A DNA stretch of 64,000 bases. Origin: Gemmatimonadota bacterium. GTDB taxonomy: Bacteria > Gemmatimonadota > Gemmatimonadetes > Gemmatimonadales > GWC2-71-9. The stretch lies in the NCBI GenBank assembly GCA_039588295.1, contig JBDHAB010000001.1:224001-288000 (forward strand), in the 5' to 3' direction. Below the pieces are notes generated by a model. The model made no database searches. It was not told the origin of the DNA and saw only the letters and a list, made by a program, of their open reading frames with translations. Of the stretch, positions 1,027 through 7,271 are shown piece after piece (position 1 is the first letter of the stretch; each line of letters begins with the position of its first letter). The position numbers and the translations under genes are program-made.

Positions 1027-1458
1027 ATGGCGCGCGAGCTTGGCGGATCGCAGATCTCAGCCCTCTTAGAGTCGGTTCCGGGCATTGTCAATGTGCTTCG
1101 GAGCCCGGTCGCGGACGCGCTCGTGGACATGATCCGAGCTGGGGCGGGACTCGACGAGTTTCGCCTAGAAGCAGCGCAGGAACTCATTCAGTATGCAGTG
1201 CGTCGTGGTCTCATCGGTGCCGGTGAGGGCGAGCAAGTCCTGAAGGACGTCGAAGCCGTGGCACCCCGATCGCGGAGGCGTGGTGCGGGTGCACGCGGGA
1301 AGACCCGGGCGGGCGCTAAGCCGGCAACAAAGCCGCGGGCTCGCAAGCCGGTGCCGAAGAAACCCGAGGGGAAGGCTCCGTCGAAGAAGACGGCGACGAA
1401 GCGGAAGGCGCCAAAGAAGCCGGCGAGACAGACCACCAAGAGGGCAAAGCGCCGGTAA
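1027..1458 (+). CDS. Phasin-like N-terminal domain plus Lys/Arg/Ala/Pro-rich histone H1-like tail
   Basis: Helical N-terminus (AVRRGLIGAGEGEQVL) followed by a KPATKPRARKPVPKK...KAPKKPA tail. Confidence 0.7.
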   Translation: MARELGGSQISALLESVPGIVNVLRSPVADALVDMIRAGAGLDEFRLEAAQELIQYAVRRGLIGAGEGEQVLKDVEAVAPRSRRRGAGARGKTRAGAKPATKPRARKPVPKKPEGKAPSKKTATKRKAPKKPARQTTKRAKRR

Positions 1459-2210: not shown

Positions 2211-2831
2211 ATGACCACGTCAGCGACGACACACTCGACGCATAGTTGGCCCGGCAGGGCGGAAGCGCTGAGCCACTTCTTCCTGCGGGCAGGAGAAGCT
2301 CCGCGCCTCATCGCCTACGATGAAGACATGGGCTGCCCGCTCCACAATGCGTTGGCTGCGCTCGAATGGACGCTGGCGGTCGGCGTACTCAAAGACACCG
2401 ACCTGATCCACGCCGCCCGTCTGGGGGGTGAGACGGCCGCCGCTGTGGTGGAACGCCGTCACGACGGGCAGCGACGTTACGTCTACTTGGGGCCACGTAT
2501 GGATGCCCCGCCGGCAGATCCGTACGAGGGATCGCTGTTGTACGACGAGCCCGGCGTCCGTGCATATCAGTTTGTGCAGCGGGCGCACGCGGTGGCGCAC
2601 TTCCTCCGGGCGACTCAGGGGGCGGGAAGCGTGTTTTCCATACTGTCCCGTCGCGCGCCGGAGCTGCGCCACGCCCGACGGTGGCTCGCCGTCGTGTTCG
2701 AGAACCCGCCGGACGCGGTCTCAAACCTGTTGCTCGCTGGCTGGTTCGCGACCACTGGGGGTGGAGTCTTGTTTGCCCCAGCGGCGGTCGGTCAGCCGTA
2801 CGTATACCAAGAAGTGGGAAGTGAGTCATGA
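2211..2831 (+). CDS. Hypothetical protein with internal duplication
   Basis: Coding-like composition; ATGA overlap with the next gene. Confidence 0.7.
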   Translation: MTTSATTHSTHSWPGRAEALSHFFLRAGEAPRLIAYDEDMGCPLHNALAALEWTLAVGVLKDTDLIHAARLGGETAAAVVERRHDGQRRYVYLGPRMDAPPADPYEGSLLYDEPGVRAYQFVQRAHAVAHFLRATQGAGSVFSILSRRAPELRHARRWLAVVFENPPDAVSNLLLAGWFATTGGGVLFAPAAVGQPYVYQEVGSES

Positions 2832-3393: not shown

Positions 3394-3438
3394 GGTGTGG
3401 AGTCAGTGTGTACGCCGGTTATGCACACGCTCCACACC
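3394..3438 (+). repeat. Inverted repeat/hairpin after gene 2828-3382
   Basis: GGTGTGGAG/CTCCACACC and GTGTGTA/TGCACAC arms. Confidence 0.5.
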
Positions 3439-3532
3439 GCGTGGAAACTTGTGATCCCGACCAGCAAAACCGAGCGATTTTTCCTCCACACACCGTCCAC
3501 ACAAGTCACGTAAGCCGAAGAAACAGCGGCGC

Positions 3533-3560
3533 TTGCGCGGTTTCGTGGGCCTACTACATT
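3533..3560 (+). promoter_or_regulatory. Putative sigma70 promoter of the ncRNA
   Basis: TTGCGC-16 bp-TACATT immediately before the first helix. Confidence 0.55.
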
Positions 3561-3565
3561 TGAAC

Positions 3566-3997
3566 TCCGTTGCTCAGGGGAAGGGTTGAGACCCCATAAG
3601 TCCCAGCCACGCCTTGAGTGGCAGGCCCAAGGAGAGAATTCCGGGGAGGCCGCCGACGCATTCAAGGGCTTCGGGCGTCCTATGATCCGGGTGATCACCT
3701 CCCTTGAGCCGACGAGGCCAGTCGCGTGCCTCGTCCGCACCGAAGTGGCGCCTCGGTGTGCAGTGCGAGAGGCCGGTCCGCGACCCGGCTGACTCGAAGC
3801 GCCCGCACTGGCGAACCTTGCAGCGAGGCCAAGCTGCTTGGGGATGGAGGCCGGAGCTCCGGCGCGCCCAACCGCGGATGCATCAGTCCGAGCGGCGGCG
3901 GCGGGAAGAAGAACAGAGGGAGTAAATCCCCTGGCTCCGGGTAGCCAGCGCGTGGGGCGGCTCGTCACTTTCGGGTGTTCGGGCCGCCCCTTTTTTT
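3566..3997 (+). ncRNA. Putative large structured non-coding RNA (~430 nt), family not recognised
   Basis: No credible ORF; at least 9 helices visible by eye; potential kissing loop; promoter upstream and U-tailed terminator downstream. Confidence 0.65.
3954..3997 (+). terminator. Intrinsic terminator (+ strand)
   Basis: GGGGCGGCTCG/CGGGCCGCCCC stem, UUCG-capped extension, then T7; no U-tract in the minus direction. Confidence 0.85.
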
Positions 3998-4026: not shown

Positions 4027-5466
4027 CTACCCCTTGACCACCCCGACGGGGACGAGCTTGGCGACCTTCTTGCCGATTCCCGCCCCGTGCACGACGTCCA
4101 CAACTTGGCGGACGTCCTTGTAAGCCTCCGGAATCTCTTCGTCGACGGTGCGGCGGCTCGCCGCTCGGACCAGGATTCCGTGCTGCTCCAGTTCCCGCAG
4201 CACATTACGGGGTCTTGCGACCTTCCGGGCTTGGTGCCGACTCATGCGGCGGCCGGCACCGTGGCAGGTCGATCCAAACGTCTCGCTGAACGCGCCGGTC
4301 GTGCCCACGAGCACGAACGAGTACCGCCCCATGTCGCCCGGAATGAGGACAGGCTGTCCGATGTCTCGATACCGCGGTGCCAGGTCAGGGTGGCCGGGGG
4401 GAAAGGCACGGGTGGCACCTTTGCGGTGCACGCAGACGCGTTGACGCCTCCCGTCGACTTCGTGGGTCTCGAACTTGGCAATGTTGTGCGCCACATCGTA
4501 CACGAGATCCGCGCTGTCGCTGACCTCCTCGGAGAACACCTCGGCCAACGACCGGCGTACGTAGTGACTCATGAGTTGCCGGTTTGCGAACGCGTAGTTC
4601 GCCGCAGCGTTCATCGCACCGATGTAGGCCTTGGCTTCCGGACTGTGCAGCGGTGCACAGCACAGCTGTTTATCTGGGAGCTCGATCCCGTATCTGTCCG
4701 CCGCGCGGACCATGGTGTCGAGGTAGTCGTCGCACACCTGGTACCCCAAGCCGCGGGATCCCGAATGAATGAAGAACGTGACGGAACTTGGGGTGAGTCC
4801 GAGCCTCGTTGCCGCGTGGTCGTCAAACACCTCTGCCACGTAGCCCACTTCGACGAAGTGGTTGCCACTACCGACCGTGCCGAGTTGTGCCTTGCCACGC
4901 TCCTTGGCGCGGCGGCTCACAGCATCCGGGTTACCGGACAAGGTCCCGTTGGCTTCGATGCACTCCAGGTCTCGGCGCGTTCCGAACCCCTCGTCCACGG
5001 TCCACCGCGCTCCGTGCTCGAGCACTCGATCCAGGGCGGTTGGTGAGAGCTTGACGTCGGAACGTGAGGAGCCGACCCCTGACGGAATTGCCGCGTACAG
5101 CGAGTCCACGAGACGCCGGAGTCTCGGACGGACCTCGTCAACCGTCAGCTGGCTCCGCAACAGTCTCACACCACAGTTGATGTCGTATCCCACGCCCCCC
5201 GGTGAGACCACACCGTTGTGTTCGTCGAACGCGGCGACGCCGCCAATCGGGAACCCGTATCCCCAGTGAATGTCTGGCATCGCGATGGACGGTCCAACGA
5301 TTCCCGGCAGGTGGGCGACGTTGACGACCTGCTGAACGCACGGATCGCCCTCGATGTCGCGCATCAACTCGGTGTCGGCGAAGATCAAGCCGTCTGTGCG
5401 CATGCCGCCGGTGCGGCGAACCCGCCAGCGGAATGCATCGACCCGCTGTACCTCGATGGGCTGCAT
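4027..5466 (-). CDS. rtcB: RtcB RNA 3'-phosphate/5'-OH ligase (archaeal/eukaryote-like long type)
   Basis: Motifs PDIHWGYGFPIGG, GYDINCGVR, GSGNHFVE, HSGSRG, HNIAK, HRKGATRA, STCHGAGR. Confidence 0.97.
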   Translation of the reverse strand: MQPIEVQRVDAFRWRVRRTGGMRTDGLIFADTELMRDIEGDPCVQQVVNVAHLPGIVGPSIAMPDIHWGYGFPIGGVAAFDEHNGVVSPGGVGYDINCGVRLLRSQLTVDEVRPRLRRLVDSLYAAIPSGVGSSRSDVKLSPTALDRVLEHGARWTVDEGFGTRRDLECIEANGTLSGNPDAVSRRAKERGKAQLGTVGSGNHFVEVGYVAEVFDDHAATRLGLTPSSVTFFIHSGSRGLGYQVCDDYLDTMVRAADRYGIELPDKQLCCAPLHSPEAKAYIGAMNAAANYAFANRQLMSHYVRRSLAEVFSEEVSDSADLVYDVAHNIAKFETHEVDGRRQRVCVHRKGATRAFPPGHPDLAPRYRDIGQPVLIPGDMGRYSFVLVGTTGAFSETFGSTCHGAGRRMSRHQARKVARPRNVLRELEQHGILVRAASRRTVDEEIPEAYKDVRQVVDVVHGAGIGKKVAKLVPVGVVKG

Positions 5467-5577
5467 CGACGCCTCCTACCTGCAATATACGGGTCGATGT
5501 GCGGAGGCACCGTGTCAGAGTGTTCGGCGGCGCGGGGGGCAACGGGAGGGACGGGAGATGATCCCGGCCGGTCGCGG

Positions 5578-5991
5578 TCAGACGTCGAACAGGATCTCCG
5601 CATGCCACCCTGCATCATCGTGCGCCACGGTGAACCCGTGCCGGGTGACGGCCTTCACTTCGGGCTGCGGCTTGTGGACCACTGGATCGCAGCGCTCACC
5701 TCGAACGAGGACGGCGAGCAGGGGTGGTCCGGGCTGTACGACCTGCAGATCGGCGGGCAGGAATCCCTCGGTTGCGGAACGGTACAGCAGGTCCTGGAGC
5801 AACCGGAGGAGCATGTCGGCTGGGTCGTCACCCTCGACTTCGATGCGATGCTGTTCCCGAGGAACGACTGGGCTGTGACCGGTCAATAAAAGACGCATGA
5901 CTGCGACGCCGTCGGCCAGCACTTCGTCGAATGTCGCTGCGTCAATGGCGACCTTGATGTCGGCGGTGTGCGGTAGAAACCGGTACGTCAC
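5578..5991 (-). CDS. Archease
   Basis: N-terminal YRFLPHTADI; C-terminal EVKAVTRHG...ILFDV; adjacent to rtcB. Confidence 0.93.
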   Translation of the reverse strand: MTYRFLPHTADIKVAIDAATFDEVLADGVAVMRLLLTGHSPVVPREQHRIEVEGDDPADMLLRLLQDLLYRSATEGFLPADLQVVQPGPPLLAVLVRGERCDPVVHKPQPEVKAVTRHGFTVAHDDAGWHAEILFDV

Positions 5992-6284: not shown

Positions 6285-7271
6285 TCACGTGATACTCGGT
6301 GCACCCCAATCGCTCCGCAGACGAGAGACTCGCCGATGGTCCAACGAGCGCTGCAAGGTGGAGACGGTCCCCTCGGGAAAGTTGCCGTCGTCGCGCAGTG
6401 CCTCCGCAACGGATGCGGTCTTGGCGCTGGCGTTGTCGGCCCAATGCAGCACCTCGGCTTCGAGCATCATCGGGGTGATGGGGCTGCCAAACTCTTTCTT
6501 ACCGTGATGCGAGAGAATCAAGTGCAGGAGGATGTCGCGTTCGACCGCCGTGCACGGTGCCGGAGACTCTTGGGCCAGGCGTCGGTCGAGCATGAGCGCT
6601 CCCAGCACCACATGACCGAGCAGATACCCAAGCTCGGTGTGCTCGAAGACGCCGTCCCAGCGGTAGGAATCCAGCTTCCCGATATCATGCAAAAGGACCC
6701 CGGTCAGGACCAGTTCCTGGTCGGCGCCGCATGCGCGAGCGATGGTGCGGGCAATGGCGGCTACCTCTGTCGTATGCTTGAGGAGACCACCAATCACGGC
6801 GTGGTGACCGAAGACCGCCGCGGGACACTGCTCATACCGCTGGCGAAACGCATCCTCTTCGTAGAATAAGTCGACCACCGCCCGCAGGCGCAGCTTGCGC
6901 ATCTCCTGCCGCCAGCTGTCCAGCGTGTTCCAATACCGGTCGACGGAGCCCACCGATGGGAGCAGGGCTGTCCGATCGACGGCGTCTGGCGGCACGTGCC
7001 GCAGCGTAGTGATGCTCAGCTGCTTCCGGTCGCGGTATGTCGTTACCTCACCGACCACGTGGACGACATGCCCCCGTCTGAGGCCGGAAACCTCATCTTG
7101 GCGCTCGGGCCAGAATGGCACAGTGCCGATGCGTCCACTCGCATTGCCGAGCGTCAGTATCGTGAACGGATCACCACCTCCCGTCGTGCGAGCGTCGACT
7201 TCGAGCACCAGGAAGGAGCCCTCCAGGCGCGTACCGAGGGTGAGGGAGGGAATGTGGATGGGAGTCGGCAT
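6285..7271 (-). CDS. yhaM: YhaM/Cbf1-like 3'-5' exoribonuclease (OB fold + HD domain)
   Basis: N-terminal OB fold; PAA..HHA..GGLLKHT, LLHDIGK, ILSHHG..EFGSP, LHWAD motifs. Confidence 0.88.
   Translation of the reverse strand: MPTPIHIPSLTLGTRLEGSFLVLEVDARTTGGGDPFTILTLGNASGRIGTVPFWPERQDEVSGLRRGHVVHVVGEVTTYRDRKQLSITTLRHVPPDAVDRTALLPSVGSVDRYWNTLDSWRQEMRKLRLRAVVDLFYEEDAFRQRYEQCPAAVFGHHAVIGGLLKHTTEVAAIARTIARACGADQELVLTGVLLHDIGKLDSYRWDGVFEHTELGYLLGHVVLGALMLDRRLAQESPAPCTAVERDILLHLILSHHGKKEFGSPITPMMLEAEVLHWADNASAKTASVAEALRDDGNFPEGTVSTLQRSLDHRRVSRLRSDWGAPSIT

Follow-up and report, generated by a model that had tools for sequence, protein, structure and literature searches.

A free-standing structured RNA gene with a double-pseudoknot core in two Gemmatimonad families

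The window considered here is the whole stretch of DNA that was analysed, 64,000 nucleotides of a Gemmatimonad genome (G000 in what follows). By comparison with its homologs, the segment at about 3567-3997 of the plus strand is a free-standing gene for a structured non-coding RNA, provided with its own promoter and its own terminator. The features of the locus are the following:

2211..2831 (+): upA, orphan gene for a protein of 206 amino acids (P0001), candidate protein partner of the RNA
3396..3501 (no strand): cluster of DnaA-box-like sites (TGTGGA/TCCACA), with TTATGCACA at 3419-27, conserved upstream of the promoter
3511..3560 (+): conserved upstream element TAAnCCnAAnAnA..GGC and sigma70-type promoter
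3533-38 (+): -35 hexamer TTGCGC, followed by a 16-nt spacer
3555-60 (+): -10 hexamer TACATT, conserved in homologs
3567..3622 (+): domain I, a variable 5' hairpin, missing from short versions and second copies
3624..3710 (+): domain II, an optional branched stem
3711..3803 (+): universal core of 93 nt, with hairpins A, B and C and two covarying pseudoknots
3711-35, 3736-60 and 3764-98 (+): hairpins A, B and C, adjacent, all in the core
3721-26/3779-84 (+): pseudoknot 1, kissing loops
3747-51/3799-3803 (+): pseudoknot 2, loop B with the 3' tail of the core
3804..3952 (+): domain IV, multibranch, in some lineages reduced or missing, with the purine-rich conserved linker GAAGAAGAAC
3954..3997 (+): intrinsic terminator, GC stem 3954-61/3983-90 and T7 at 3991-97
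4027-5991 (-): rtcB and archease, found between the RNA and yhaM in few genera
6285..7271 (-): gene for a yhaM-like 3'-5' exoribonuclease (OB and HD domains), a frequent convergent neighbour

Two small genes without a Pfam match are also present upstream of the locus, at 625-903 and 1027-1458 (+), and a long histone-like tail rich in Lys, Arg and Ala marks the product of the second.

An earlier note on this DNA, made from the letters alone, had proposed the promoter TTGCGC-16-TACATT, a terminator that does not serve rtcB and the absence of any credible open reading frame, and all of this agrees with the comparative data. Both hexamers are kept among homologs, and at the -35 position GGC[AG]CTTG recurs across the 81 distinct loci whose upstream regions were compared; a consensus promoter scan over the locus called 0 promoters, and the case for the promoter is its conservation. 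In the short versions of the RNA, the core begins 1-11 nt past the same -10 hexamer. From the position of the promoter, transcription probably starts at about 3567, and one contig from an RNA run starts at 3573. The stem of the terminator covaries, its sequence turning over with retention of pairing and T tract, and rtcB adjoins the RNA only in few lineages. A conserved coding frame is lacking: of the 45 full-length homologs, 41 carry within 3640-3945 an indel whose length is not divisible by 3 and breaks the frame.

Part of the stretch is contained in 16 runs from 11 studies, 14 of which are recorded as RNA. Contigs from 4 of the RNA runs (4 studies) cover 3573-3949 and include neither promoter nor terminator; near-identical pieces correspond to 3573-3848 (3 differences) and 3585-3739 (0 differences). 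Summed depth in the bin of the core is 900-184,000, and no bin of rtcB or upA goes above 19. These values suggest a highly abundant RNA; abundance is suggested and not measured, because the runs were picked as containing the stretch, relatives were summed, and contigs carry neither strand nor ends, and the missing cover outside 3573-3949 proves nothing alone. In run X1 an adapter sequence directly follows 3948. In run X2 position 3948 is joined back to 3634 and to 3711, in one contig each, from one study and at 80% likeness, which hints weakly at molecules that are circular or ligated head to tail.

Covariation shows the predicted working unit of the RNA to be its 93-nt core, three hairpins tied together by two pseudoknots. 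In an alignment of 60 diverse, non-redundant core sequences, selected from 100 extracted ones, 95.8% of the cells are paired and 30 of the 38 pairs have changed on both sides, with pseudoknot 2 paired in 99.3%. None of 500 shuffles scored as high, and slid structures were 34-43% paired; the structure was read by hand from the same alignments, which favours it over its slid alternatives, and related sequences make the shuffle test look better than it is, so that the structure-blind MI-APC, which replaced a crude pairing screen that proved too permissive, is the better check. Of the top 30 MI-APC pairs, 20 are predicted pairs, including 3721/3784 (z 9.4) and 3724/3781 of the kissing loops and 3749/3801 of pseudoknot 2 (z 6.8). 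Covariation in the core includes G-U pairs and thus points to an RNA and not to a DNA element. Folding of the single sequence is not above chance (z -1.77; 6 of 100 shuffles equally good), and the evidence for structure is therefore comparative.

Natural shorter versions show that the RNA can do without domains I, II and IV. Full forms measure 367-390 nt before the terminator (46 sequences; 385 nt for the copy in the window); truncated ones are of about 290 nt, with much of the 3' domain missing, or of about 310 nt, without the 5' domain, as in the second copies described below. The shortest natural forms, of 140-175 nt, are without both flanks and keep the same promoter and only the core, 3711-3803. 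The 5' 60 nt of the RNA align poorly, which weakens all tests touching them; on this poor alignment, the local stem of domain I (3569-79/3612-22) has a paired fraction of 0.64 and 61 compensatory cells. Domain II contains the covarying pairs 3630/3705, 3642/3689 and 3649/3679, and domain IV the pairs 3806-12/3944-50, 3824/3833, 3854-55/3936-37, 3858/3906 and 3915/3932.

About half of the detailed fold drawn in the earlier note is wrong, and it missed the two real pseudoknots and the modular build. What stands are the helices at 3711-35 and 3736-60, both 99% paired in 46 full-length homologs and with 75 and 47 compensatory cells, respectively, together with hairpin C and the helices 3824-25/3832-33 and 3915-21/3927-32, all supported across homologs. 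Conversely, several proposed elements are not supported in the same 46 homologs: the outer helix 3572-81/3700-09 has a mean paired fraction of 0.47, the hairpin at 3606-22 (GCCAC/GTGGC) of 0.59 and the loop-loop contact 3612-17/3662-67 of 0.34; the other two tertiary contacts put forward, 3649-54/3894-99 and 3592-96/3839-43, are 0.78 and 0.62 paired with 0 compensatory cells each. Helix 3850-63 reaches 0.64. Helix 3761-67/3804-10, 0.81 paired with 5 compensatory cells, claims bases used by hairpin C and by the closing helix of domain IV, and in place of helix 3931-36/3943-48 (0.75 paired) the covarying pairs are 3854-55/3936-37 and 3806-12/3944-50. As to context, the note had also overlooked upA, the linked orphan, and the further copy of the RNA that this genome carries.

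A DNA search of 61 related genomes returned long matches down to about 70% identity, and two covariance models were used for wider searches, R1 for the 3' two-thirds of the RNA and R2 for the core. Families are designated here by the arbitrary labels f1-f12, f1 being that of the window and f3 and f2 its sister families; the name of the order is taken from record titles. Matches to R1/R2 were found in 70 of the 71 genomes of f1 and in both genomes of f3 (2/2), and the remaining genomes of the phylum sample (77) gave no match to R1 and a single borderline one to R2 (E 0.037, among the 31 genomes of f2). With the core model, the best E over the 39 genomes searched from another order was 0.4, and 16 loci of f2 yielded no convincing match in the surroundings of yhaM. 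A pattern scan of the genome collection returned at least 120 stretches; among the 80 listed and scored, 35 are members of the RNA family, all with titles of the Gemmatimonad- type (Gemmatimonadales or similar), and the other 45 are non-members (best E 0.006, off pattern); outside the order, absence is established for the genomes and stretches that were scored. BLAST against phages and plasmids gave only chance matches of 25-31 nt, and neither of the 2 stretches returned by a pattern scan of viral contigs belongs to the family. One genome of f1, G029 (97% complete), is the only one of that family in the sample without the RNA and without upA.

The earlier note had described a standalone, large, structured and possibly undescribed RNA, whose novelty a strong Rfam match would remove, and this description is borne out by the homologs, by covariation in the core and both pseudoknots, by the promoter and terminator, by the contigs from RNA libraries and by the negative Rfam search. 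With Rfam 15, the segment 2500-5500 of the window gave at E<=10 one chance match, located elsewhere, the whole window only a tRNA, and 8 homologous loci, including short and second copies, nothing over the gathering score; of the 10 weak matches at these loci none falls on the core. The note was also right in setting aside tmRNA, RNase P RNA and SRP RNA, whose genes are found elsewhere in the genome: rnpB at C1:186671 (RF00010, 297 bits), SRP RNA (RF00169) at C8:65897, and tmRNA (RF00023) in two parts, one at the end of contig C13 and one at the end of C52 (L271, L272), with no tmRNA called by ARAGORN in the window. A bacterial Y RNA is rejected, as no TROVE match was found in the genome (96% complete) and no Rfam or ARAGORN match at the locus. 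The model of OLE RNA (RF01071) matched neither the locus nor the control genomes, and the 367-390 nt of the full forms do not fit its length of about 600 nt. Our RNA also does not conform to 6S RNA: it lacks a match to RF00013, does not lie between zapA and rny, and covaries as a pseudoknotted fold of several hairpins. No description was found in the literature on Gemmatimonad RNAs, where motif collections present only in supplements or under subscription could contain one; the accessible main text of PMC5737381 has 0 mentions of Gemmatimonads. From its sequence, the RNA appears to fit no known family, and its mode of action may still resemble that of 6S/Ms1 or raiA RNA.

The closest companion of the RNA is upA, whose distribution equals that of the RNA (70/71 in f1, 2/2 in f3, 0 in other families). 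With coordinates compared by eye, the distance between upA and an RNA copy is at most about 1.5 kb in 72 of 73 genomes, the exception being G176, where the RNA is 611 nt from the start of a contig; the adjacency survives inversion of order and orientation in f3 and at L096. UpA is highly conserved, with many conserved Arg and His residues, a pI of 6.3 and 1159 relatives in the protein collection. Its AlphaFold model (pLDDT 88) shows two alpha/beta repeats, an internal two-fold repeat, and UpA would accordingly be a soluble alpha/beta orphan without a recognisable RNA-binding fold. The C-terminal 167 amino acids have no Pfam or NCBIfam match, and searches of PDB sequences, Foldseek, VIA-align and the ESM Atlas returned no match, by which a new fold is not proven; the best structural comparison (Z 6.2, rmsd 3.1 over 68 residues) is inside the background range. 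After upA, the commonest neighbour is yhaM, from which the RNA is separated here by rtcB and archease; the product matches NF010007 with an E of 3e-37, under the curated cut-off, and its link to the RNA is positional only.

Upstream of the promoter, TCCACA is present in 78 of the 81 regions compared, and TTWTNCACA, allowing one mismatch, in 59 of the 81, with a mean of 1.11 as opposed to 0.14 in shuffles. We call these sites DnaA-box-like on the basis of what we take to be the DnaA-box consensus; the same box core recurs at the dnaA locus, 37 kb away, both in front of dnaA and in the dnaA-dnaN interval. The locus itself is not oriC, as dnaA-dnaN and the skew minimum are about 37 kb distant. 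The densest cluster of such sites in the genome, G000:C3:107646-107830, is also far from dnaA, and could possibly be a DnaA-titrating or regulatory site. DnaA-box-like sites are present, too, just downstream of the 3' end of the tmRNA.

A second or third copy of the RNA is found in 19 of the 73 carriers. In G000 the second copy, at C10:49300-49551 (L066:4001-4250), is diverged, lacks domain I and stands divergent from a gene for a YbaK-type tRNA-editing protein. A USP, CBS or hibernation-factor gene occurs within 3 kb in 6 of 14 second-copy loci, whose frames were chosen by codon composition and not taken in all frames, and 2 of the 14 have hibernation-factor (RaiA-type) genes nearby; genes for phosphoribosyltransferase, BON, FtsH and beta-CASP proteins also recur. 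As a background, the 4.5 Mb of G000 contain 1 USP gene and about 11 CBS genes. We take such gene sets to be dormancy or hypoxia islands, after the mycobacterial DosR regulon. In the tree, one clade with weak support (90/84) unites 10 of the 13 second copies, so that the link with these islands may represent a single recruitment. No consistent FNR/CRP boxes were found upstream of the second copies. One second copy (L103) lies downstream of rtcB and a hibernation-factor gene.

As for 6S RNA, none was found in the genome of the window, and matches to RF00013 are distributed as 0/71 in f1, 0/2 in f3 and 10/19 in the genomes of the more distant families f10-f12, where the 6S gene lies between zapA and rny. 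The zapA-rny spacers examined in f1 and f3 (29) do not exceed 168 nt and are too short or without such an element. Conversely, in f2, where the double-pseudoknot RNA is missing, 10 of 12 loci carry in this spacer a promoter and an irregular rod of about 150 nt, missed by Rfam (L257-L269, L298). A model of this element matches 17 of the 31 f2 genomes at E<1e-6, 4 of them used in its building; elsewhere it gives weak partial matches (E>2e-4) in 5 of 71 genomes of f1 and 1 of 2 of f3, like the background in other families, and nothing in G000. Of its 11 rows 2 come from the unpublished genomes G212 and G192, which also enter the count of 10 out of 12. What makes the f2 element 6S-like is its position and shape alone, with no sequence match to the 6S RNAs of f10-f12; it is probably a divergent 6S RNA, or else an rny leader. 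Families f6 and f7 match neither RNA, probably because both models miss them.

The model that we favour, regarded as roughly an even bet, is that of a trans-acting, protein-binding RNA for the control of growth and dormancy, probably tied to DnaA, with UpA as first candidate partner. Starting from its own sigma70-type promoter and ending at its own terminator, a chromosomally encoded, trans-acting RNA would be produced, whose folded core would offer a docking surface to a protein; the resulting abundant ribonucleoprotein would hold or tune this protein in shifts between growth and dormancy. For the protein, the product of the adjacent orphan gene, UpA, would be the first candidate. Transcription of the main copy would probably be coupled to the replication state via DnaA, and a second lineage of copies would have been recruited into dormancy gene islands. 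The model draws on the near-universal retention of the RNA (70/71, 2/2), the covariation of core and pseudoknots, the constant terminator and the inversions, the cover in RNA runs, the co-distribution and adjacency of upA and the conserved Arg and His residues of its product, the upstream DnaA-box-like cluster and the dormancy genes near second copies. Several points speak against the partnership with UpA: with a pI of 6.3 the protein is not basic, no RNA-binding fold can be recognised in it, the co-distribution of its gene follows ancestry, yhaM travels with the locus too, and second copies sit away from upA; the joint absence of RNA and upA from G029 would be explained by one deletion or an assembly gap. 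Against the link with islands, the second copy of G000 itself has just the YbaK-type gene beside it.

A different possibility, unlikely in our estimate, is that the RNA binds RNA polymerase (core or holoenzyme) like the Ms1 of actinobacteria and replaced 6S RNA in the ancestor of the two families. RF00013 has no match in f1 and f3 and matches in f10-f12, and the 29 zapA-rny spacers examined in f1 and f3 offer no room or no such element where f2, which lacks the RNA, keeps a rod. Like 6S and Ms1, the RNA is free-standing, of comparable size, tied to dormancy genes and present in clades apparently without 6S; its size and the dormancy link fit Ms1 (about 300 nt; PMC9130861). Unlike them, it is a compact double pseudoknot and not a long rod with a central bubble, it does not occupy the zapA-rny site and no model matches; moreover, the f2 element lacks a sequence match to the 6S RNAs of f10-f12, and the argument is a single evolutionary contrast, the mirror-image pattern of RNA and 6S-site element being statistically untestable because it amounts to one evolutionary event. 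A reading of the locus as cis-acting (riboswitch or leader), as a DNA element or as coding would find support at most in the aptamer-like size of the pseudoknotted core and in the DnaA-like boxes, a feature at the DNA level. This reading is highly improbable: the constitutive terminator always follows the RNA, and at L096 and in f3 the gene has turned round between its neighbours, which argues against cis action; downstream genes are unrelated or convergent, so that no co-oriented gene of consistent function has a fixed place behind it, as a riboswitch or leader would require; and the G-U covariation and the frame-breaking indels oppose a DNA element and a coding region, respectively.

The core combines a double pseudoknot with invariant nucleotides, as is typical of catalytic RNAs, so that a ribozyme could be considered, or else an RNA that is processed or circularised in connection with YhaM and RtcB; yhaM is often found nearby, rtcB stands beside some main copies and one second copy, and the two back-joints of run X2 would fit circles. 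We consider this improbable: no known ribozyme family matches, rtcB adjacency is restricted to few lineages, no TROVE/Ro60 gene was found in the genome, and each back-joint, seen in a single contig with the intervening letters unread, would equally arise by library ligation or template switching. Just as improbable is a remote relationship with raiA-motif (ModT) RNA, with retention of its P3b/PK1 module and of a stationary-phase role. In the raiA RNA at L229 the sequence GCC-AGUCGCA-GGC is followed by CCACG, and in hairpin A GCC-AGUCGCG-UGC is followed by CCRC, with agreement of 11 of 13 letters and of the register; in raiA, according to PMC12968392, the loop opens with an unpaired, stacked base and the six bases after it make up PK1, the same register as in hairpin A, and 2 of 14 second copies have RaiA-type hibernation-factor genes in their vicinity. 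However, the context of the PK1 partner differs, this being a hairpin loop and not a linker, and short GC-rich loops converge easily, so that chance or convergence could explain the likeness; RF03072, whose model matches a Nocardioides genome as positive control, gives no match at the locus even at E 10, the core model reaches a best E of 1.6 on a raiA locus, and the closing helix P1, the most conserved raiA element, is missing, with no 5'-3' pair among the top covarying pairs and short versions made of tandem hairpins.

In general build, our RNA resembles raiA RNA (RF03072; PMC10861870, PMC12968392) in being standalone, single-locus and trans-acting, with two pseudoknots, a small conserved core, optional peripheral stems and, possibly, a similar 7-nt loop that forms a 6-bp pseudoknot. 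It differs in its three tandem hairpins with a loop-loop kiss, its phylum, its neighbours and its tightly linked orphan protein gene; for raiA RNA no strong partner candidate is reported in PMC10861870. With the large ornate RNAs OLE, ROOL and GOLLD (PMC12286853) it shares large size, dense pairing and unknown biochemistry; unlike these, it is shorter, reducible to a 93-nt core, without an Rfam match, found in another phylum and not seen in the phage and plasmid collections searched. OLE is encoded beside its own protein partner, OapA, and an adjacent gene for a candidate partner, UpA, is likewise proposed here.

Few bacterial RNAs are at once large, structured and strongly conserved, and those whose function has been established mostly serve core processes. 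The RNA described here is carried by nearly all genomes searched in two families of a soil and sediment order that is abundant and for the most part uncultured, and it appears in sediment and soil metatranscriptomes, where annotation would miss it. A bolder version of the favoured model, rather doubtful as a whole, holds that a DnaA-regulated ribonucleoprotein of the double-pseudoknot RNA and a new-fold protein replaced a lost 6S RNA, with the duplicate serving dormancy islands; if true, it would be a third, structurally unrelated RNA solution to growth-phase control, coupling replication state to transcription or dormancy. The replacement of 6S RNA in lineages lacking it becomes directly testable in vitro, and the system offers several handles: a natural minimal form of 140 nt, three-dimensional constraints backed by covariation, a candidate partner without known fold, a candidate regulator in DnaA, and a distribution that mirrors that of the 6S-site element. 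Genome G108 shows a duplication, its short copy having remained beside upA and yhaM and its long one, with a full promoter, being located elsewhere (L080, L098).
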